A stretch of 64,000 nucleotides of DNA from Mariniphaga sp. Lineage in GTDB: Bacteria; Bacteroidota; Bacteroidia; Bacteroidales; Prolixibacteraceae. Every line of letters starts with the position of its first letter. Position 1 is the first letter of the stretch. The notes under the pieces were generated by a model, which was given only the letters and a program-made list of their open reading frames with translations, did no database searches and had not been told where the DNA came from. The translations under genes were made by a program, and so were the position numbers. Below are positions 6,330 to 26,811 of the stretch, piece after piece. The stretch spans positions 179,715-243,714 of the forward strand of contig JAWLCW010000005.1 in NCBI GenBank assembly GCA_041686935.1, read 5' to 3'.

Positions 6330-7664
6330 TCATAACTTCGGAAACTCCCATCCGTTTTGGTAATCGGGACGAATGAAAGCATCGGCTTCAGGATTGTTCC
6401 GAAACTTCATTTTGTTTGCATCATAGTTGAGACTTATACCGCCCAACCGGTTCGAAATATTGGCAATACAGGCCACTTCTGTTGCATAGCTTCCCTTTTC
6501 AATCGTTCCGTTGGTATTCGGGTTGTTGGTCCGGATACATTCGGCCCAGTTGATCATGTGATTGTGTTGATTGCCGTAAGGACCGGTCACAACTTCCGGC
6601 TTAATCAGCGGGTTCCCTTTTGCATCGTTTTGCGGAATTATCTCGTATCCGGTCCGGTTGCAAACCAGGGTGCCGTTGCTTCCAATCCAGGCAACTCCGT
6701 CGGGTCTGTTATAAAGCCTGGTATTTTGCTGTTCCCAAACCACATGGTAGTTGTCAAACTGAAAAACTGAAGTTTGAACCCTCGGTGTTTCGGTCAATGT
6801 TTCGGGATGCCTGTAACCAACCGAAAAAACTGTTTTCGGGTATTCTCTCGGATGGCCCAGTGCGAGTAGACCATCGAATGCCGAATCGAGGTAATGCACC
6901 CAGTCCGTTTGCTGACCCCCGCCAAAATCCCAGTAATTCCTCCACTGCCGGTGAAACCGGTTACTGTTGTATGGGCGATAACGTGCCGGACCAATCCACA
7001 TGTTGTAATCCAGCGTTTCGGGCACGGACTGCGGCGCGGGGTCGTAAATAACCGGATTGGTATTGCCTGGTATCCAGCAGTGTACCTTGTAAACATCGCC
7101 CAATATGCCTGTTTTTAATATATTGAATGCATCGGTGAAATATCCCAGACTGATTTGCCAGAGCCCCGTAGTTACCACATTCTTATACCTGCGTTGCAGA
7201 TCAACCATCAGCCTGCATTCTGCAATGGTTCGGCCAACAGGCTTTTCAACATAAATGGCTTTTTCGGCCCTGCATGCTTCGGCAAACATATAAGCATGCC
7301 AGTGGTCGGGAGTGGCAATGATAACTCCGTCGATATCCTTGTTGCCGAGCAGCTTGCGAAAATCGTCGTAAAACTTTATGCTGCCTGCTCTCCCGGGGAA
7401 TTCATTTTTAAGCACGGCTGCTTGTTCCTTCAGCCGGACCTGATCCACATCACACAGGGCAATACATTGTACTCCATTGTCTGCCCTAAGCAAGTGCTGC
7501 ATGTTTTCTGTACCCCACCAGTTTACTCCAATTACACCAATGTTGATTCGCTCGGAGGGAGATGCTGATGCGTAAAGGTTTCGGGGTATTGTTGTGTATA
7601 TTCCGGCCCCGGCCATTGTAATGGCTGAATTTTTCAGAAATGATCTTCTGCTTTTATTTTCCAT
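6330..7664 (-). CDS. Gfo/Idh/MocA family oxidoreductase with Tat signal
   Basis: 444 aa. The twin-arginine signal is SRRSFLKNSAITMAGAG. The Rossmann start is INIGVIGVNWWG and a GFO_IDH_MocA-like EKP motif (YVEKP) is present. Confidence 0.85.
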   Translation of the reverse strand: MENKSRRSFLKNSAITMAGAGIYTTIPRNLYASASPSERINIGVIGVNWWGTENMQHLLRADNGVQCIALCDVDQVRLKEQAAVLKNEFPGRAGSIKFYDDFRKLLGNKDIDGVIIATPDHWHAYMFAEACRAEKAIYVEKPVGRTIAECRLMVDLQRRYKNVVTTGLWQISLGYFTDAFNILKTGILGDVYKVHCWIPGNTNPVIYDPAPQSVPETLDYNMWIGPARYRPYNSNRFHRQWRNYWDFGGGQQTDWVHYLDSAFDGLLALGHPREYPKTVFSVGYRHPETLTETPRVQTSVFQFDNYHVVWEQQNTRLYNRPDGVAWIGSNGTLVCNRTGYEIIPQNDAKGNPLIKPEVVTGPYGNQHNHMINWAECIRTNNPNTNGTIEKGSYATEVACIANISNRLGGISLNYDANKMKFRNNPEADAFIRPDYQNGWEFPKL

Positions 7665-7665
7665 G

Positions 7666-8679
7666 TTATCTTTTTTTAATTTGAAACTGGCGCAACCCCA
7701 CCGAGTCGCATTCGTAATTGATGCATTTTTTTAATTCATCGTCGAGTTTCATCAGAGTGCAGGTTATTCCTGCCATTTCGAGCGATGTAAAGTAATTGCC
7801 CACGTAGGAATGATAAATTTTAATTCCTTTTTCGTTGAGGATTTTTTCCACATCGTTATACACAATGTATTGTTCCATTACCGGGGTTGAACCCAATCCG
7901 GAAACAAGTACAACTACCTCGTCTCCACTTTCGAACGGCAAATCGGGTAAAATGACATCACAACAGCGTTGGGCAATTTTGGCTGCCGGTTCAAGGTCGG
8001 CAATTTCAATTCCCGGTTCGCCGTGGTGTCCGATTCCCACCTCCATTTTGCCCTCTTCAATGGTGAAATTCGGGTGCCCAACCTCGGGGATGGTACACGG
8101 AGATAGGCCAATTCCCATGCTCCGGGTATTGTTAATTGCTTTTTGGGCGGCGGCAATAACCTCGTCGAGTGAAGCGCCCATGGCCGCTTTTGCGCCTCCC
8201 ACTTTCCACATCAGTATTTCGCCGGCCACACCGCGGCGTTTGTTTTCCTCGCCTTTGGGGGCCGAAGGTACATCGTCGTTTGCCACCACTTTTTTTACCT
8301 GAATTCCTTCATCTTCGGCTTCCTCCATGGCCATGGCCACGTTCATGTTGTCGCCGGCATAGTTTCCATAAAGAATTGCAACGCCTTTGCCTCCATCGGC
8401 AGCTTTAATGGCATCGTAAAACATTTGAGCCGGTGGCGATGAAAAAATCTCTCCTACAGCTACGGCATCCACCATATTCCGGCCAACATAACCCACAAAT
8501 GCCGGTTTATGGCCTGACCCTCCGCCGGTAACGATTCCGACTTTCCCCTGTAACGGCGCATTTTTGTATTTAATAACCCGTTCATTTTCGGTTTGAGCAA
8601 CCAGATCGGAATGCACTTTTACATAGGCTTCGAGCATTTCATCAACTACTTTCGATGGGTCGTTTATAAATTTTTGCAT
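7666..8679 (-). CDS. dhaK: Dihydroxyacetone-kinase family, substrate-binding subunit DhaK
   Basis: 337 aa. MQKFINDPSKVVDEMLEAYV... and GGGSGHKPAFVGYVG are classical DhaK motifs. Confidence 0.9.
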   Translation of the reverse strand: MQKFINDPSKVVDEMLEAYVKVHSDLVAQTENERVIKYKNAPLQGKVGIVTGGGSGHKPAFVGYVGRNMVDAVAVGEIFSSPPAQMFYDAIKAADGGKGVAILYGNYAGDNMNVAMAMEEAEDEGIQVKKVVANDDVPSAPKGEENKRRGVAGEILMWKVGGAKAAMGASLDEVIAAAQKAINNTRSMGIGLSPCTIPEVGHPNFTIEEGKMEVGIGHHGEPGIEIADLEPAAKIAQRCCDVILPDLPFESGDEVVVLVSGLGSTPVMEQYIVYNDVEKILNEKGIKIYHSYVGNYFTSLEMAGITCTLMKLDDELKKCINYECDSVGLRQFQIKKR

Positions 8680-17664: not shown

Positions 17665-18159
17665 TTATTTTACTTTGTCGAAATAGAGCGTACCATCGCT
17701 TGTTCCGCCGGAGTAGCTCGTTGAATAGTCCATTTTCAGGGTTTTTCCGTCATTTTCAACCGACCATGTTTCCTTTGTTTTCAGGTCGTCTGCACCGCCG
17801 TTTCCGTAGAATGTTGTGGTTGATTCAAATGCAATTGATTTATTGCTTTCCGACAGGGAAGCCTTTGCTTTTCTGGGCATATCGTAAATCGTGATTTTTG
17901 ATTCTGCACCTTTGAGTGAAAGGTTTTCCTGGAACGGATACGCCTCTCCGTATCCATTTTCATAAACCCGGTTGGTGAAAAGGCTGTCGTTTTTCTGTAA
18001 AACCGTCATTTTCGAAAGAAAAAGCTGGTCGTTTTGAGCGGTTGATTTTTCCTTGTTCAATTTCCATTTTCCTGAGAAAACGGGCGATTGCCCTAAAGCT
18101 GGTTTAAAAGAGATGAAAAAGAAAACCACGCTTAATACTACTAACGTTTTTGTTTTCAT
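17665..18159 (-). CDS. Hypothetical secreted protein
   Basis: 164 aa with an N-terminal signal peptide (LVVLSVVFFFISFKPALG) and beta-rich composition. I recognised no motif. Confidence 0.4.
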   Translation of the reverse strand: MKTKTLVVLSVVFFFISFKPALGQSPVFSGKWKLNKEKSTAQNDQLFLSKMTVLQKNDSLFTNRVYENGYGEAYPFQENLSLKGAESKITIYDMPRKAKASLSESNKSIAFESTTTFYGNGGADDLKTKETWSVENDGKTLKMDYSTSYSGGTSDGTLYFDKVK

Positions 18160-18198
18160 AATAATGGATTTAAATGTTGATAATAAAATTGGACTTAA

Positions 18199-19392
18199 TT
18201 ATTGATGGACAAATTCTTTCCAGTCCTTGCCGCCGGTGAGCCAGGCCAGATTAAACCGGGCCATTTTGCCGCCGCCGTCGCTTTCGTAGAAAAGGTAAAT
18301 CAGACCTTCAGAAGGTGTTCCCGCACGACCTGCGGTTAACGACGAATAGGCAAAGCTGCCTTTGTCAACCACACGTTTTACCGGCCAGGTTTTGCCGCCG
18401 TCGAAACTGGCCCACACAGTGCCGTTGAAGCGGCGTGAGGTGCGCAGTTCAAAGGGAACATCTTCGTCCTTTTTATCGGCCGGAACATCGATGTTGCTGA
18501 ACAGCAGGATGTCGTGCCCCTCAACCGGCAGGCGCACCAGCCCGGCCATTAACCCGTAATCGGTGTGCTGGGCGCCGTCGGGCAGGTCTTCATCTATCCA
18601 TAAATCTTCCCACGTTTGGCCGCCGTCGTAACTGTATGCGATGTACCTGCGGCGCGGGTTCAGCCCGTCGGTGGATTTATGCCGCCGTGAGTTGTAGTAA
18701 AGCGTTCCGCCGGAAAGTTCGGCAATGGCTGCTTCGCCGGCGCCATAAGCCGGAAACGGTTCGCCGGCCTGCCAGGTTTTGCCGCCGTCGTCGCTGTAAA
18801 TGGCGTTGGTGTAGTGTTCGTCCCAGAACTCCCGGCCGTTGCCGCTGCCGTACCAGCGCGAGGGGCGAATCAGCCTTCCGGCATATTTCCCCTGCTTCAG
18901 CGTGATGCCGTGCTCGTTCATGTGCATGGACGGGACATGCCCCAGGCTGTTGGGGCGGATGGTCACCTCCTCCGCATTCCAGGTTTTCCCGTGGTCGCGG
19001 CTGCGGTAAATCGTGAGCGGGGCAGGCGGGTGTCCTCCCTCCGCAAAAGCCAGGATGTGGCCGGTGGTTTCATCCACGGTGGTGCCGCCGCCCTGAAATC
19101 CGGGATGGGCCACGGTAATTTCCGGCTCCCAGGTTTGGCCGCCGTCTTCGCTGCGGAGCACCCTGAAATGTTCGCTTCCCCAGGTAGCCACAATGGTTCC
19201 GTCGGTAGTGGTAACCACATTGGGAAACCGCTCGTTGGAAACCAGTTGCTGCACTTCAAAAACTGGCTGTCCGTTGTTCCAGAACGGATTTTTTTGCGCG
19301 GTTTTGCACGAGATGAAGAGGATAATCACAACAAGAACAGCGGCTATGCAATGTTTTTTGATGCTCATTTTTTTATGTTTATCGTTTGACAA
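18199..19392 (-). CDS. BNR/Asp-box repeat protein (sialidase/GH33-like beta-propeller), lipoprotein
   Basis: 397 aa with five Asp-boxes: SEDGGQTW, SRDHGKTW, SDDGGKTW, SYDGGQTW and SFDGGKTW. The lipobox is FISC. The start may be the internal Met at 19368. Confidence 0.8.
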   Translation of the reverse strand: MSNDKHKKMSIKKHCIAAVLVVIILFISCKTAQKNPFWNNGQPVFEVQQLVSNERFPNVVTTTDGTIVATWGSEHFRVLRSEDGGQTWEPEITVAHPGFQGGGTTVDETTGHILAFAEGGHPPAPLTIYRSRDHGKTWNAEEVTIRPNSLGHVPSMHMNEHGITLKQGKYAGRLIRPSRWYGSGNGREFWDEHYTNAIYSDDGGKTWQAGEPFPAYGAGEAAIAELSGGTLYYNSRRHKSTDGLNPRRRYIAYSYDGGQTWEDLWIDEDLPDGAQHTDYGLMAGLVRLPVEGHDILLFSNIDVPADKKDEDVPFELRTSRRFNGTVWASFDGGKTWPVKRVVDKGSFAYSSLTAGRAGTPSEGLIYLFYESDGGGKMARFNLAWLTGGKDWKEFVHQ

Positions 19393-19712
19393 ATCGTTTA
19401 AGATGCTTATTTTTAAACCCTAAATAAATCAAAAATTGAATTCAGAACCTGAAATAACACGAAGAAACAAAATTTTTCCAGGCCCCGAAAATTTCGGTAG
19501 CGGTGAAGATTGGGAAAAGTTAGTTGGAGTTAGTGAAAACCACGCCGGGGTGCGCCGGATGAAATTTTTTAACGGAAAAGATGGGTTACACAACTTTTTT
19601 GGCATTGTATTCCAACCCGATAATAGAGATATAAACCAACTCTTCGGGTTTTACATACGTTATGTGCGTCATGCTAAAAGTCTCAGTGCTACATTAAAAA
19701 ATTGATGAAAAA

Positions 19713-20500
19713 ATGGGAATAATAGATTTAACAGTAACTTCTTGTATTCATTTAGTTAGAAGTAATCTCAAGGATTTAAAACCAATTTCAATTGGCTCAG
19801 GTGTTATTATTAAAAATAAGGAAAGATTTTTCATTTGTACTGTTTCTCATTTTTCTGATTACCCTGAAGAAAACGTTGGAATTGTGACAGGTAGAATAAA
19901 AAATAATGAAACTGAAGTTTATTACCTTGGTAATTTCTCATACCTGACAAAGATAAGTTTTGAAGAAATGCCTGATGCTGAAGATTTAGTTTATTGTATT
20001 GAAAATCCAGATATGGGTGGAGATAAATTGGACATTGCATTTAGGGAAATTTCTTTATTGGAGAATATTGTTCAGGATAAGAGAGAATTCGATTTGAATG
20101 GTATTGGTAAGATAACAGTTAATCAAGGCGGGAAGTCTTTATTATTTGCAGATGATGACTATCAGATTGATACTAATTATCAATGTAGTTTTATGGTAGG
20201 ATTAGACCAAAATTGGAAAACGGAATTTTGGATTTTCAAGAAGCGTTATATTGGAATTTGCCAATAAAATCAGTTGGTGAAGAATTTATTGAAATGGATT
20301 TAGGAGCACCAATAAATGACCATACGAGATTTAAAGGTTGCAGTGGTGCACCGATTATTGACACAAGGGTGCGCTTAATTGGTTTAGTTACTCATGGTGA
20401 AAAAGATACTACAAAAAGCAGTATATATAGATTTAGGTTTGATAAAGTTAAACAATGGATTGATTTAATGTATTTTCAAGAACCAATATCAAAAATGTAA
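19713..20500 (+). pseudogene. Trypsin-like serine protease interrupted by a single frameshift (or sequencing error)
   Basis: The 19713-20267 ORF carries His (TVSHF, 19848-19850) and Asp (LDIAF, 20031-20033). The ORF in the other frame (open from 20189, ending 20500) carries Ser (GCSGAP, 20342-20344). The total span is 788 nt, one nucleotide short of an intact frame. Confidence 0.65.
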
Positions 20501-20525
20501 ATAGTTAATAATAAGGAAATACGGA

Positions 20526-22031
20526 ATGAAAAGTATAATTGAATTAGATGAAATTGAAGCAAGAGAGTTCTTTTTGAAAGAAAAGAATTATGTGAATTTT
20601 GACCTTCCAACTTACTTTTCGTTTCAGAATTTATTGAACTTGCTTGACAAACAATTGTCCGGAAAAAAACTTTCAGATTATAGAACAACAAATCCAAGAG
20701 ACTTTGATGATATAAATTATTATATTTTAAATAATAAAGATGGAAAATATGCTTGGCGACCATTTCAAATAATAAATCCTGCAATTTATGTTTCTCTTGT
20801 TCAATGTATTACAGATAAAGATAATTGGGAATTAATACAAAAAAGATTTCTTAACTATCAAGAGAATGACAGAATAGAATGCCACAGTTTACCGATGGTA
20901 TCAGGTAGTGAAGAAAAAACAGATAAAGAATCTCAAATTTTCACTTGGTGGCAAATGATTGAACAAAAGTCAATTACTCTTTCACTTGATTATCACTACT
21001 TCTTGCAGACTGATATTACAGATTGCTATGGCTCAATTTATACTCATTCGATTAGTTGGGCTATTCATGAAAAAACTGAAGCTAAAAAGAAAGAAAATAG
21101 AACAAAGAATTCTTTAATAGGAGTCGCAATTGATAACCATTTACAAGACATGAGTTATGGACAAACCAATGGGATTCCACAAGGAAGTACTCTAATGGAT
21201 TTCATTGCTGAAATAGTTCTTGGATATGTAGATGAGTTGCTAACACACAAAATAAACGAATTAAGCATTTCTGATTATAAAATTCTAAGATATCGAGATG
21301 ATTATAGGATTTTTACAAACAATCCATTTGAAGCAGAACAAATTACAAAAGCATTATCTGAAATTCTTTCTGACTTAGGATTAAAACTTAATGTCAGTAA
21401 AACTAATGCATCAGACAATGTTATTAAAAGTTCTTTAAAACCTGATAAACGATATTGGATTGCAAATAGGCGTATTGCGGAAAACAAACAAAAATGGTTG
21501 ATTCAATTATTCTTATTATCTGAGCAATTTCCTAATTCAGGGACTTTAGATACTCAAATGAGAGATTTTTTAGAAGTATTGAAAAAAAATAAAAAAGATG
21601 ATTCAAATATTGAGTCTTTGATAAGTTTAGTTACAGAAATTGCATATCGTAATCCAAGAGTAGTTCCGACATCTATAATGATATTATCTCTTTTAATTAA
21701 ACAGATTAAAATTAAGGATGATAAAAAAATAATTTTGAAAAGGATTTATTCGAAGTTTCAACAAATTCCAAATTCAACATTTCTAAAAATATGGTTGCAA
21801 AGACTTACTGTTAAGATTGATACTTCAATTATTTATGATGAACCTATCTGTAAGCTTCTTTCTGATAATGAAATACAGCTTTGGAATATTAATTGGCTTA
21901 ATGATAAAATTAAAAATAAGATAAAAAAGACCCCAATTATAATTCAATCAAAAGTGAAAACATTGAGAGCTGTAGTAACAACCAAAGAAATAGATAACAT
22001 GATAACAAAAAACGCATACAATTACGAATAA
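20526..22031 (+). CDS. Reverse transcriptase with a non-RT C-terminal extension (defence-associated UG/Abi-like architecture)
   Basis: 501 aa. The RT motifs are in order: KDGKYAWRPFQIINP (1/2), LQTDITDCYGSI (A), NGIPQGSTLMDFIAE (B), RYRDDYRIF (C, YRDD at 21291-21302) and GLKLNVSKT (D). About 190 further residues show no RT motifs. Confidence 0.9.
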   Translation: MKSIIELDEIEAREFFLKEKNYVNFDLPTYFSFQNLLNLLDKQLSGKKLSDYRTTNPRDFDDINYYILNNKDGKYAWRPFQIINPAIYVSLVQCITDKDNWELIQKRFLNYQENDRIECHSLPMVSGSEEKTDKESQIFTWWQMIEQKSITLSLDYHYFLQTDITDCYGSIYTHSISWAIHEKTEAKKKENRTKNSLIGVAIDNHLQDMSYGQTNGIPQGSTLMDFIAEIVLGYVDELLTHKINELSISDYKILRYRDDYRIFTNNPFEAEQITKALSEILSDLGLKLNVSKTNASDNVIKSSLKPDKRYWIANRRIAENKQKWLIQLFLLSEQFPNSGTLDTQMRDFLEVLKKNKKDDSNIESLISLVTEIAYRNPRVVPTSIMILSLLIKQIKIKDDKKIILKRIYSKFQQIPNSTFLKIWLQRLTVKIDTSIIYDEPICKLLSDNEIQLWNINWLNDKIKNKIKKTPIIIQSKVKTLRAVVTTKEIDNMITKNAYNYE

Positions 22032-22052
22032 AGCACGAACGCAGAACACGCA

Positions 22053-22156
22053 ATATAGCCAATGGCGGGAACTGTGGGAGTTTGAATCTTTCTGCCCCAC
22101 ATCAAGGTTTGTAACGGTGGATAATGACGAAGCCCGCAAACCGCCACTGGCCATAT
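22053..22156 (+). ncRNA. Candidate structured RNA in the RT-Mrr spacer
   Basis: ATATAGCCAATGGCGG (22053-22068) is the imperfect reverse complement of CCGCCACTGGCCATAT (22141-22156), matching 14 of 16. An inner stem TGTGGG/CCCACA is present. G+C is 27/60 at 22081-22140 inside an otherwise roughly 28% G+C island. There is no expression evidence. Confidence 0.3.
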
Positions 22157-22196
22157 TGTTAAACGTTTTAATCTAAATTTTAAAAGATAAGAAATT

Positions 22197-23060
22197 ATGG
22201 ACAAATACTTTAAATATAAATATGACGACCTTTTTAACCCGACATTAAAAGCATTGAAAAAACTTGGAGGTTCAGGTGCGATAAGTGAAATTGAGGAGGA
22301 GGTTGCTCAACTTCTAAATTTATCTGAAGAAGCGACTAATGAAATACACCGAGAAAGTACTACTAAATTGACGTATAGGCTTGCTTGGGCAAGAAACTAT
22401 CTTAAAAGGTATGGTCTGCTTGAAAATTCTTCGAGAGGTGTTTGGGCATTGTCTGAAGAAGGGAAAAATATAACTGAAGTAAACCAGGAGAAAGTTAAAA
22501 AGTTCGTCGTAAAAAAAGATAGGGAAGAGCGGCTTCAAAAGAAAAGTGAAGGAAATTGTTCACCCGAACTTCAAGGTACAACAGAAGAGATAGAAGAGTT
22601 TTCTTGGCAAGATAAATTGCTTGACACCATAAAAGCCATACTCCCAGACCAATTTGAAAGACTTTGCCAAAGGCTTTTAAGGGAATTAGGTTTTGTAAAC
22701 GTAGAAGTTACAGGCAAAACAAATGATGGTGGAATTGATGGAAAAGGAATGATTAGACTTGGTGGTGTTCTTTCATTTCATGTAGTTTTTCAAGCTAAAC
22801 GATATCAAGGTTCTGTTTCATCTTCAGTAATTAGGGATTTTAGAGGCGCAATGAGTGGACGAGCGGACAAAGGGCTGATAATGACAACTGGAAGTTTTTC
22901 CCGGGAAGCAAAAAAAGAAGCACAACGAGATGGTGCAATACCTATTGACTTAATTGATGGTAACGATTTCGCAGAAAAACTTAAAGAGCTAAATTTGGGA
23001 GTGACAGTTGAGTTGGTGGAAGAGGTTAAAATAAAATCAGATTGGTTTAAGAATATTTAA
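22197..23060 (+). CDS. mrr: Mrr-family restriction endonuclease (Mrr_N winged helix plus Mrr catalytic domain)
   Basis: 287 aa. The N-terminus LFNPTLKALKKLGGSGAISEIEEEV...YRLAWARNYLKRYGLLENSSRGVWALSEEG is Mrr_N-like. The C-terminal core is NDGGIDGKG...VVFQAKRY (D...QxK), followed by GLIMTTGSFS. Confidence 0.85.
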   Translation: MDKYFKYKYDDLFNPTLKALKKLGGSGAISEIEEEVAQLLNLSEEATNEIHRESTTKLTYRLAWARNYLKRYGLLENSSRGVWALSEEGKNITEVNQEKVKKFVVKKDREERLQKKSEGNCSPELQGTTEEIEEFSWQDKLLDTIKAILPDQFERLCQRLLRELGFVNVEVTGKTNDGGIDGKGMIRLGGVLSFHVVFQAKRYQGSVSSSVIRDFRGAMSGRADKGLIMTTGSFSREAKKEAQRDGAIPIDLIDGNDFAEKLKELNLGVTVELVEEVKIKSDWFKNI

Positions 23061-23106
23061 AATAAATGAAAAACTCAGGCTGACATCAAATAAATCACTC
23101 CACGAA

Positions 23107-23202
23107 ATGACCGCCGAAGAGCTGGGGCAGTTGTTTCCGGTGGTGATTGAGGAATACCAAAGTGACTGGGTGGAGTTGTACCGGCCGGAGGAAAAGAAGT
23201 AA
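23107..23202 (+). pseudogene. 5' remnant of a GrpB-family gene (31 codons then stop)
   Basis: MTAEELGQLFPVVIEEYQSDWVELYRPEEKK* matches my memory of GrpB-family N-termini (...EEL.QLFP..L.EY...W...Y..E). Full-length GrpB proteins are several-fold longer. The local G+C is higher than in both neighbours. Confidence 0.5.
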
Positions 23203-23264
23203 AATAACCTTCAAAACTGCCGATGAGAAAGTTAAATTGAAGAAACTGAAAAAGTAAAATAGCG

Positions 23265-24314
23265 ATGGCTGATAAAAAGAAAAATAAACAGGAAATAGTT
23301 CGTTCGTCAGCAGCCGAATATTTAACCTTTATTGCTGCAGGAGGTGGTTCGGAAACAAGTGTTGAAATGCGCTACGAGGATGAAAATGTATGGCTTACTC
23401 AAAAAATGATGGCAACACTTTACAATGTTTCTGTGCCTGCAATTAACCAACACTTAAAACGTATCTATTCTGATAATGAATTGGAGCCGAAGGCAACTAT
23501 TAAGAAATACTTAATAGTTCAAACCGAAGGAAAAAGGGAAGTGCAACGGGAAGTGGATCACTTCAGCCTGCAAGCAATAATTGCTGTGGGGTTTAAAATT
23601 GAAAATGAACGGGCTGTACAGTTTCGCAAATGGGCAAACCAGATTGTAAAAGATTATACCATTCAGGGTTGGACAATGGACGTAGAACGTTTAAAAAATG
23701 GCGGTACCCTAACCGATGAATTTTTTGAAAAACAACTTGAAAAGATTCGGGAAATCCGTTTGTCGGAGCGAAAATTTTATCAGAAAGTAACCGATATTTA
23801 TGCAACCTCCATAGATTACGACCCAACAGCAACGGCTACAAAACGTTTTTTTGCTGCGGTACAAAATAAAATGCACTATGCCATTCACGGTAATACGGCA
23901 GCTGAGGTAATCGTTAACAGATCTGACCATCAAGAAGATAACATGGGGCTAACTACCTGGGAGGGGGCTCCAAAAGGTAAAATACACAAATATGATGTTA
24001 CCGTAGCCAAAAATTATCTTTCTGAATATGAGTTGGGGCAAATGCAACGAATTGTATCGGCTTATTTAGATATGGCAGAATTACAGGCTATGCGCAAAAT
24101 ACCAATGACAATGGAAGATTGGGAAAGTCGGCTCGGTGGTTTTTTAAAACTGTGGGACAGGGAAATATTGCAGGACGCAGGAAAAGTAACAGCAGAAATG
24201 GCAAAAGCCCATGCCGAAAGCGAATTCGAAAAATACAGGATTATTCAGGACAGATTGTTTGAATCGGATTTTGACCGGTTTTTAAAGCAGCTTAAAGAAA
24301 AATCCGAAGAATAA
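23265..24314 (+). CDS. rhuM: RhuM family protein
   Basis: 349 aa. The N-terminal block VRSSAAEYLTF...VEMRYEDENVWLTQKMMATLYNVSVPAINQHLKRIY and the later FRKWANQIVKDYTIQG are typical RhuM-family sequence as I remember it. Confidence 0.75.
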   Translation: MADKKKNKQEIVRSSAAEYLTFIAAGGGSETSVEMRYEDENVWLTQKMMATLYNVSVPAINQHLKRIYSDNELEPKATIKKYLIVQTEGKREVQREVDHFSLQAIIAVGFKIENERAVQFRKWANQIVKDYTIQGWTMDVERLKNGGTLTDEFFEKQLEKIREIRLSERKFYQKVTDIYATSIDYDPTATATKRFFAAVQNKMHYAIHGNTAAEVIVNRSDHQEDNMGLTTWEGAPKGKIHKYDVTVAKNYLSEYELGQMQRIVSAYLDMAELQAMRKIPMTMEDWESRLGGFLKLWDREILQDAGKVTAEMAKAHAESEFEKYRIIQDRLFESDFDRFLKQLKEKSEE

Positions 24315-24376
24315 ATTATGCCGGGTATTAAGGAAACAATATTTCAGTTTTGAATCCCCCTTCGATTCCCCTTCCG

Positions 24377-24418
24377 AAGCCGCGAAGCGATTCCAATGGA
24401 AGAATCACTTCGTGGCTT
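24377..24418. terminator. Hairpin between convergent rhuM and iorB
   Basis: AAGCCGCGAAGCGATTC (24377-24393) pairs with GAATCACTTCGTGGCTT (24402-24418): 15 Watson-Crick pairs, one G-U and one mismatch, with an 8-nt loop. There is no clean U-tract. Confidence 0.4.
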
Positions 24419-24506
24419 TGGCAGACATCATCCATTTTTCAAAGCTAAATTTTCGCCAAGGGGGACGCGTTCTTATGAACTTTGGTTGTTTGATGAATAA
24501 GTCATC

Positions 24507-25088
24507 TCAGCTTTTGCTCAGGGAAAAGGCCCGTCCGGCTTTGAAAGCTTCAATGTTCATTTCTACAATTTTATTGCCTTTGGCTTTGAAAATGGTTTCA
24601 ATGCCTTTGATGATGATTTCCTCGTGAATGGCGATGAACGGCGAGGCGGCGCCCAGCATTACCATGTTGGAGGCTTTGGGATTGCCGGTTTCTTTGGCAA
24701 TCTGGTCGGCATCGATGCGGACGATGTTGATTTTTTTGCTGAGCTCATCGAAAGTTTTTTCCAGCTCCGGATAATTTGGGATGTTTACAAACTCGGCTGT
24801 ATTGGTCACAAGGCTTCCTTTTGGCGAAAGGTAGGGCAGGTAGCGCAACGATTCCATGGGCTCCACCGACAGGATGAGGTCGGCATGGCCTGTTGGAATC
24901 AGGTCGGACCAGATGGGGTGGTCGGCAATGCGCAGGTGCGAAACCACGGCACCCCCGCGCTGGCTCATGCCGTGCGTTTCGGCCTGTTTCAGGTAATAGT
25001 TTTCGTTGAGGGCGGCAGCGCCCAGTGAGGCGGCAATGGAAAGAATTCCCTGACCGCCAACCCCTGCCAGTATAATGTCTGTCTTCAT
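24507..25088 (-). CDS. iorB: Indolepyruvate:ferredoxin oxidoreductase, beta subunit
   Basis: 193 aa. MKTDIILAGVGGQGILSIA...GMSQRGGAV is typical of the gamma/IorB 2-oxoacid:ferredoxin oxidoreductase domain, and iorA is adjacent. Confidence 0.85.
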   Translation of the reverse strand: MKTDIILAGVGGQGILSIAASLGAAALNENYYLKQAETHGMSQRGGAVVSHLRIADHPIWSDLIPTGHADLILSVEPMESLRYLPYLSPKGSLVTNTAEFVNIPNYPELEKTFDELSKKINIVRIDADQIAKETGNPKASNMVMLGAASPFIAIHEEIIIKGIETIFKAKGNKIVEMNIEAFKAGRAFSLSKS

Positions 25089-25191
25089 AGTTTAATTTTT
25101 TACCGCAAAGTCGCTATGACGCAAGGAATATTTTGGAATATTTTTTCAATACGAGTTATAACGACTATATTATCAATGTTTTATATGCTGA

Positions 25192-26811
25192 TTATTTTAA
25201 GTCTTTTGCCGCATTCTTTTTTTGCAGCCGTTTCATTTTTGCTATGCGTTGCACACATTCCCTGCGGCCGATAATCACCGAAACGCCGTTGTATGCCATC
25301 TCCTCGCGAATGATTTTTACAATTTCACCGTGGTTCTTTTTCAGCGGCACAAACAGCCGGATGTGCTCCGGAGCCACGCCCACGCCTTCGCAGATTTTTT
25401 CAATTCGCCCTTTGGCCGACGAATCCTGTCCGCCGGTCATGGCCACGGTTTCGTTGTCCACTATCAGGATGTTCACGTTCGATTTTTCAATCACACAGTC
25501 GAGCAGGCCGGTAATTCCGGAGTGGGTGAACGTGGAGTCGCCAATCACGGCAAATACCGGGGAAAGTCCGGCATCGGCAGCGCCTTTGGCCATGGTGATG
25601 GAGGCGCCCATATCCACGCAGGTGTTGATGGTGTTGTAAGGCGGCAATGCTCCCAGGGTGTAGCAACCGATGTCGGAGAAAACGCGTCCGTTGCCCACAT
25701 CGGCAAGCACTTCGTTCAGCGCTTCGTAGGTGTCCTGGTGGCCGCATCCCGCACAAAGCGACGGTGGCCGCCCCACCAGTGTATCGGGCATTTTAAGCGG
25801 TTCTTCCAGCTCTCTGCCCAGCGCTTTAGCCAGATGGTCGGGATTGAGTTCACCCATGCGCGGAAGCGCTCCGTTCAATCTTCCTGATACTTTGGTTCCT
25901 TTCCCGAAAAAGTCGGTGACCAGTTCTTCCACCAGTGGATAACCTTCTTCAACAACCAGCAGTTCATCGCACTCTTTTTCCAGTTTCAGCAACCATTTTT
26001 CGGGAACAGGGTACTGTGTAATTTTTACCACCGGGTAGGGGCAGTTGCCTTCGGGGTAGTTTTCCATCAGGTAGTTGTATGCAATTCCGCAGCACACAAT
26101 GCCCAGACTTTTTTCCTTTCCTTCGGTATAGGAATTGAAAGTTGATTCTTCCGACAATTCGGTGAGCCAACCCTGTTTGTCGAGCAGGTTCTGGTAATAT
26201 TTTCTTCCGTAAGCCGGAAGCAGCATAAACTGCATCAGGTTTTCGGGCAGTTTGAGTTTATTTTCACTTTGAACCGGTTTTTGCACCACACCCGAACGTG
26301 AGTGCGCCAGCCGGGTGGGGATGCGCATCATTACCGGCAGTCCGGTTTTTTCTGAGAATGCAAACGCTTCGTAGGTCATGTCGTATGCCTCCTGCTGGTT
26401 GGAGGGCTCGAACACGGGAATCATGGCAAACTTGCCGTAAAAGCGGGAGTCCTGCTCGTTTTGCGACGAATGCTGCGACGGGTCGTCAGCCACGGTAATT
26501 ACCAGCCCGCCGTTAATGCCGGTTATGGCCATGTTCATAAACACGTCGGCAGCCACGTTCAGGCCCACATGCTTCATGCAGGCCATGGTCCGTTTGCCGG
26601 CATACGACATGCCCAGTGCGGCTTCCAGCGCCGTTTTTTCGTTGGCCGACCAATCGCGGTGGATGTTCCTTTCGCGTGCCAGCTTGTTATTTTGAATGTA
26701 TTCCGTTATTTCGGTTGACGGGGTGCCCGGGTAAGCGTAAACGCCTGAAATTCCGGCATCTATGGCTGCCTGCCCAATGGCTTCAACCCCCATTAAAAGA
26801 TTTCGTTGCAT
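25192..26811 (-). CDS. iorA: Indolepyruvate:ferredoxin oxidoreductase, alpha subunit
   Basis: The TPP-binding block is GDSTFTHSG and a Cys cluster CAGCGH is present. I chose the start at the internal Met (MQRNLLMGVEAIGQAAIDAG, ATG at 26811) rather than the ORF-track start at 26868. Confidence 0.85.
   Translation of the reverse strand: MQRNLLMGVEAIGQAAIDAGISGVYAYPGTPSTEITEYIQNNKLARERNIHRDWSANEKTALEAALGMSYAGKRTMACMKHVGLNVAADVFMNMAITGINGGLVITVADDPSQHSSQNEQDSRFYGKFAMIPVFEPSNQQEAYDMTYEAFAFSEKTGLPVMMRIPTRLAHSRSGVVQKPVQSENKLKLPENLMQFMLLPAYGRKYYQNLLDKQGWLTELSEESTFNSYTEGKEKSLGIVCCGIAYNYLMENYPEGNCPYPVVKITQYPVPEKWLLKLEKECDELLVVEEGYPLVEELVTDFFGKGTKVSGRLNGALPRMGELNPDHLAKALGRELEEPLKMPDTLVGRPPSLCAGCGHQDTYEALNEVLADVGNGRVFSDIGCYTLGALPPYNTINTCVDMGASITMAKGAADAGLSPVFAVIGDSTFTHSGITGLLDCVIEKSNVNILIVDNETVAMTGGQDSSAKGRIEKICEGVGVAPEHIRLFVPLKKNHGEIVKIIREEMAYNGVSVIIGRRECVQRIAKMKRLQKKNAAKDLK

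Follow-up and report, generated by a model that had tools for sequence, protein, structure and literature searches.

Gene Content of the Locus

The open reading frame (ORF) at positions 20526-22031 (+) of the 64-kb window, which is the whole stretch of DNA analyzed here, encodes a reverse transcriptase (RT)-like protein of 501 aa; the ORF starts with ATG and its end coordinate includes the stop codon. At the base composition of the surrounding islet (~28% G+C), the chance of finding 501 stop-free codons is ~1e-19, and the ORF reported in the earlier note is real. It is intact, has the modal length of its family, and retains all of the residues that are invariant among its homologs. The motif strings that had been quoted from this protein were all found in the translation at the residues given, namely, KDGKYAWRPFQIINP (residues 71-85), LQTDITDCYGSI (160-171), NGIPQGSTLMDFIAE (215-229), RYRDDYRIF (255-263), and GLKLNVSKT (285-293), together with SLISLVTEIAYRNPRVVPTSIMILSLLIKQIK (364-395) and FLKIWLQRLTV (419-429) in the C-terminal part. 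[quoted passage not shown] The model and the match to the crystal structure 7R08 place a helical (alpha-solenoid or HEAT-like) domain, which takes the position of the thumb, at residues 298-501 (21417..22028, +). The Pfam model RVT_1 matches residues 107-296 (E 1.5e-15) and is the only Pfam match on this protein, such that no match to a maturase, endonuclease, nitrilase, or primase was obtained. The Rx4-6H motif of HEPN is absent from the 501-aa protein as well, in agreement with the previous observation that signatures of maturase X, endonuclease, HEPN, nitrilase, and primase are lacking.

This gene resides in a low-GC islet of ~4.7 kb (~19.7-24.4 kb) that has a G+C content of 28-39%, compared to 43% for the window. 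Upstream of the RT gene is a frameshifted serine protease gene that appears as two ORFs (19713-20267 and 20213-20500, both +). Downstream are a gene for a type IV (methyl-directed) restriction endonuclease with Mrr_N and Mrr_cat domains (22197-23060, +) and a RhuM-family gene (23265-24314, +) that corresponds to the PADLOC candidate PDC-S05 (E 2.7e-150), both identified by Pfam and PADLOC. Because the Mrr and RhuM genes are located directly downstream of the RT gene and in the same low-GC islet, the region can be regarded as a small defense islet. No integrase was found around the islet, no tRNA was identified by ARAGORN anywhere in the 64-kb window, and no notable flanking direct repeats or att site were found in positions 19000-25200. 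A scan for sigma-70 promoters and terminators produced counts that were no better than those of shuffled sequences. The islet could be decaying, since the protease gene adjoining the RT gene is frameshifted, although the RT ORF itself is intact.

Assignment to the Abi-P2 Family

The choice between AbiP2 and its sister UG/Abi groups was made by comparing profile scores. The PADLOC AbiP2 model (PDLC03744) matches residues 1-494 of the RT at model positions 4-485 of 489 with a score of 647 bits (E 3.5e-195), and the runner-up models are RT_UG14 (178 bits), Drt6 (167 bits), and Drt4 (143 bits). In a phmmer search against all PDB sequences, the best match is 7R08, which is the Abi-P2 of the E. coli prophage P2-EC30 (E 5.9e-92, query residues 1-480), and the second-best chain has an E-value of 4e-17. 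The top match among phage records in a tblastn search is the founding gene of the family, annotated as a "reverse transcriptase" of Enterobacteria phage P2-EC30, which is 37% identical to the RT across 89% of the query. For structural comparisons, an AlphaFold2 model of the RT was built with 29 homologs (pLDDT 86.4, pTM 0.88). Based on Foldseek, this model aligns to all six chains of 7R08 with TM-scores of 0.83-0.87 (rmsd ~3.2 Å over ~510 columns), while the TM-scores to DRT4/UG15, DRT6, and AbiK are only 0.55-0.62. The RT is a full-length sequence and fold homolog of the crystallized Abi-P2 of E. coli phage P2-EC30, and the ORF very probably encodes an Abi-P2-type abortive-infection polymerase that functions as a single-gene antiphage system.

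The C-terminal domain provides further information on the family. The last ~200 residues are all-helical in the AlphaFold model, with helices extending from residue 299 to 493, as had been supposed for the C-terminal ~190 residues. When these C-terminal 204 aa were searched alone, as the earlier note had proposed, only 7R08 was matched (residues 325-520, E 1.9e-13), and the region corresponds to the helical domain of Abi-P2 rather than a maturase or thumb-X domain. The helical domains of AbiK and Abi-P2 have no sequence homology to each other (Figiel et al., 2022; PMC9508834), and for this reason the C-terminal match is evidence for Abi-P2 in particular. In Abi-P2, this domain lines the channel for single-stranded DNA (ssDNA) and contributes to trimer formation (PMC9508834). 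According to the model, the RT has fingers and palm, lacks a thumb, and carries a family-specific C-terminal helical solenoid.

Membership of the RT in one of the sister UG/Abi groups, namely, UG14, DRT6, or DRT4/UG15, instead of Abi-P2 proper was considered as an alternative. In its favor, the sister-group PADLOC models give matches to this protein that are themselves significant (E 1e-53 to 1e-40), and structures of DRT4 and DRT6 rank directly after Abi-P2 in the fold comparison. However, the AbiP2 model matches the protein end to end with 647 bits, and none of the sister groups exceeds 178 bits. Moreover, the C-terminal domain matches the Abi-P2 structure only, and the Arg of the YRDD motif is specific to the Abi-P2 group (PMC2602772). 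We consider the chance that a sister group is the correct assignment to be close to negligible. An RT core followed by a helical tail had previously been recognized as the layout shared by AbiK, Abi-P2, and class 1 UG RTs, and the PADLOC profile, the match to 7R08, and the fold narrow this down to Abi-P2. In the classification of Mestre et al. (2022), AbiP2 is a Class 1 UG/Abi RT of the stand-alone, multi-domain type.

Relatives of this RT are abundant, with at least 6125 found at E ≤ 1e-10 among 8000 candidates. The best 120 of these have 61-100% identity to the RT and are almost all 493-530 aa in length, the two outliers being 441 and 547 aa. The named relatives among the matches listed mostly belong to Bacteroidota, a long way from the P2 prophages of E. 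coli that served to define Abi-P2. The Abi-P2 family was defined in 2006-2008, its structure was solved in 2022, and it is covered by standard defense-annotation profiles. The earlier note had implied that the architecture is novel and had itself named placement inside a well-characterized clade as evidence to the contrary; this novelty was not borne out, as the RT falls inside the well-characterized Abi-P2 family. Neither the unusual layout of the protein nor its YRDD motif is new, since both are known hallmarks of Abi-P2. The correct annotation for this gene is an Abi-P2-type abortive-infection polymerase (Class 1 UG/Abi), and the gene marks a small defense islet. Any Abi-P2 member is a possible experimental subject for the question of how the phage is stopped, and the present one does not raise the tractability of that question.

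Predicted Catalytic and Priming Residues

In an alignment of the RT with 29 homologs that are 61-88% identical to it (30 sequences), Y30, D163, R257, D258, and D259 are invariant in 30 of 30, and Y256 is conserved in at least 90%. Asp163 (codon at 21012..21014, +) is located in the motif TDITDCYGSIY and is presumably the catalytic aspartate, an assignment that we take from general knowledge of RTs. The Y256-R257-D258-D259 active-site motif (21291..21302, +) was identified from the translation and its conservation, and the surrounding string RYRDDYRIF is identical in 7R08. It had been asked whether an Arg at the variable position of YXDD is typical for any subgroup of RTs. The answer is positive, as a conserved Arg at the x of Y/FxDD was described as a peculiarity of the Abi-P2 group (Simon and Zimmerly, 2008; PMC2602772), and both 7R08 and all 30 aligned sequences have it.

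Based on the phmmer alignment to 7R08, Tyr30 (in LPTYFSF; codon at 20613..20615, +) is aligned with Tyr61 (in LPAYINF) of the E. coli Abi-P2. In the E. coli enzyme, this priming tyrosine sits on the loop between the fingers helices alpha2 and alpha3; the Y61F substitution abolished DNA polymerization and Tyr61 was assigned as the priming residue (Figiel et al., 2022; PMC9508834). From this alignment and its invariance, Tyr30 is predicted to act as the primer, with the 5' end of the DNA product attached to it.

Comparison With Other RT Classes and Search for an Associated RNA

The proposal that this RT is not part of a retron, a group II intron, or a diversity-generating retroelement (DGR) held up in comparisons of profiles and structures and in searches for RNAs and repeats. 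For group II introns, the model TIGR04416 scored 56.8 bits against a cut-off of 300 and covered the RT core only, no intron RNA was found with Rfam, and the TM-scores between the RT model and group II RT structures are 0.34-0.38 (Foldseek). For retrons, the model retron_St85_RT reached 34.9 bits where 235 are required, the Rfam scan yielded no retron RNA, and only 25 nt separate the RT gene from the gene upstream. For DGRs, there is no TR/VR pair and no direct repeat longer than 21 nt in positions 19000-25200, and the TM-score to the DGR RT structure is 0.31; across the group II, retron, and DGR structures, all values are at or below 0.4. AbiA was also considered and rejected, based on the missing HEPN motif and TM-scores of 0.46-0.51 to 8OZ7 (Foldseek).

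The spacer between the RT and Mrr genes (22032-22196, +) is 165 nt long and has a G+C content of 42%, compared to 28% for the RT gene. It contains a long and imperfect hairpin at ~22050-22160 with a minimum free energy of -46.5 kcal/mol (z = -3.3), and none of 200 shuffled sequences was as stable. This hairpin has a single copy in the window and no Rfam match. As an RNA linked to the RT family it was ruled out, because its sequence is missing from all 35 related loci. It may be a terminator or a small repeat element, or it may mark the point at which two acquired modules meet.

This hairpin, together with an RT palm and fingers in which the catalytic residues are intact, is what a templated RT that copies a nearby non-coding RNA would be expected to show, as in retrons, DRT2, DRT9, DGRs, and group II introns. 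Such an explanation is very unlikely for several reasons. Under a permissive threshold, Rfam found no credible family in positions 18000-26000, where only two eukaryotic families appeared and both were below the threshold; that region accordingly lacks intron RNAs, a retron msr/msd, and any other known non-coding RNA. Repeats resembling TR/VR are likewise missing and the upstream gap is short. In close relatives, the next ORF begins 17-34 nt past the RT stop codon, an interval too short to accommodate a conserved RNA downstream of the gene. Furthermore, the RT has no thumb and the channel of Abi-P2 is too narrow for a duplex (PMC9508834). The fold comparisons described above also argue against a templated enzyme of the group II, retron, or DGR type.

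Gene Neighborhoods of Related RTs

A scan using one genome per species resulted in 24 loci that encode relatives of the RT with 49-89% identity. Bacteroidota, with Flavobacteriia, Cytophagia, and Bacteroidia among them, account for nearly all of these loci. When the flanking ORFs were clustered all-against-all, the RT was the only gene common to the 24 loci, while the neighbors differ. The RT gene is stand-alone and lacks both a conserved partner gene and an associated RNA, and the change of neighbors from locus to locus agrees with Mestre et al. (2022).

Several of these neighbors are worth describing. In L001, a gene for a Lit-like peptidase U49 (1660-2625, +; PADLOC Lit E 2.7e-18) is found 34 nt after an 89%-identical Abi-P2 gene. 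Lit is a classic abortive-infection gene, and its presence beside this copy indicates that the defense genes next to the RT vary from genome to genome. The L001 contig was assigned to a Candidatus Peregrinibacteria metagenome-assembled genome (MAG), an unexpected placement among relatives from Bacteroidota that may reflect a binning error. In L025, which has an 88%-identical Bacteroidales copy of the RT, a 301-aa ORF (7523-8428, +) begins 17 nt past the RT stop codon. This ORF is tightly linked to the RT in L013, L025, and L026, and a shorter relative of 183 aa occupies the same position beside the 84%-identical RT in L004. The 301-aa ORF, which has no significant Pfam or PADLOC match and no counterpart in the window, could represent an accessory gene confined to a single sub-lineage. 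Two other Abi-P2 relatives are on contigs assigned to an archaeon (L012, a Nitrosopumilaceae MAG; 66% identity) and a planctomycete (L023, a Candidatus Anammoxibacter MAG; 49% identity), which suggests either a wide horizontal spread or mis-binned contigs.

The gene immediately upstream of the RT gene in the window deserves separate consideration. After repairing a 1-nt deletion, which was placed in the T run at ~20189-20193 by alignment with the corresponding gene of L028, the protease gene (19713-20500, +) encodes a protein of 262 aa. The frameshift could mean that the gene is a true pseudogene, or it could stem from an assembly error in the homopolymer. We found ~60 homologs of this protease, with lengths of 173-280 aa. 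Three residues, namely, H46, D107, and S211 (the last within GCSGxP), do not vary among 15 of the homologs, and in sequence they fit the catalytic triad of a chymotrypsin fold. No Pfam model reached its cut-off on this protein, and the family is uncharacterized.

The location of this gene raises the alternative that the RT is part of a two-gene system, in which the S1-like serine protease acts as the effector or partner of the RT in a manner that may be likened to the protease-linked UG9 variants or the RT-protease fusions of type XI retrons. Both genes are on the + strand of the low-GC islet, with only 25 nt between the stop codon of the protease gene and the start of the RT gene, and the protease has weak matches to the PADLOC RT-Protease_XI models. 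In addition, contig L028 has an intact protease gene (95% identity) directly upstream of an RT gene (88% identity). However, the wider distribution of the two genes does not agree with such a pairing. Based on a tblastn search with the repaired protease (27 loci in all), a protease relative is missing from all 24 genome loci that carry an RT homolog, and L013 and L025 have an 88%-identical RT with other neighbors. Conversely, in six of the seven protease-homolog loci examined, no RT was found nearby and the protease homolog is surrounded by conjugation genes or by HipA, AbiE, HEPN, or CHAT genes; only the closest, L028, has an adjoining RT. The copy in the window is frameshifted, and Abi-P2 is active as a single gene (Mestre et al., 2022; PMC9508834). 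Taken together, a two-gene system is improbable, and the protease was rejected as a conserved partner of the RT. Because the six other homologs have no RT nearby, we regard the protease gene as independent cargo, present in the same islet as the RT by descent in one sub-lineage.

A more restricted version of this association would apply only to the sub-lineage represented by the window and L028, in which an Abi-P2 gene may have been captured downstream of the protease gene with a gap of 21-25 nt. This would have produced a protease-plus-Abi-P2 module, with the protease in the window recently inactivated. We consider this scenario to have only a slim chance of being correct; if true, it would be a two-gene variant of a system hitherto regarded as single-gene. 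The single-gene Abi-P2 remains the preferred reading of this locus.

Proposed Mechanism

Members of the Abi-P2 family perform template-independent DNA synthesis that is primed by a tyrosine, and form trimers (PMC9508834). Moreover, the orf570 of P2-EC30 protects E. coli from phage T5 (PMC9508834). By analogy with these characterized members, the RT in the window likely performs protein-primed and template-independent synthesis of ssDNA in abortive infection. Based on homology, the protein would assemble into trimers, or possibly hexamers, and the first nucleotide would be attached to the hydroxyl of Tyr30. An ssDNA of random sequence would then be extended without a template through the narrow channel that separates the RT-like lobe from the helical lobe and that, judging from the characterized enzymes, could not hold a duplex. 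The polymerizing activity during phage infection would then abort the infection, as expected from the homologs.

Comparison With Known Systems

Similar to this RT, DRT4 (UG15) and DRT6 are single-gene Class 1 UG/Abi defense RTs, and DRT4 is reported to make random ssDNA without a template as well (PMC12783706). Nevertheless, these two are only remote homologs of the RT, with PADLOC E-values of 1e-40 to 1e-50 and TM-scores of ~0.6, and their NCBIfam scores are far under the cut-offs. AbiK of Lactococcus lactis (7R06/7R07) is also a Class 1 UG/Abi RT that has an RT-like domain and a helical domain, and it performs tyrosine-primed, untemplated synthesis of ssDNA (PMC9508834). However, the match of our RT to AbiK is much weaker than that to Abi-P2 (PADLOC E 3.6e-27, TM-score ~0.56). 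The helical domain of AbiK has 16 helices compared to 11 in Abi-P2, and AbiK is hexameric (PMC9508834).

The closest characterized system is the Abi-P2 of P2-EC30 (orf570; 7R08). Several differences from this protein were found. The identity is only ~34-37%, and the RT in the window has 501 aa compared to the annotated 546-570 aa; its start is equivalent to residue 32 of 7R08, which is the first ordered residue in that structure. The gene described here resides in a small chromosomal low-GC islet rather than a P2 prophage, in a genome that, judging from the organisms of the closest homologs, is probably from Bacteroidota. Apart from these differences, the homology extends over the full length, and both proteins are built from two lobes, one made of fingers and palm without a thumb and the other a helical solenoid at the C-terminus. 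They share the RYRDDYRIF string, the catalytic Asp residues, and the priming Tyr, and in both cases the system is a single gene located in a horizontally acquired, variable region.
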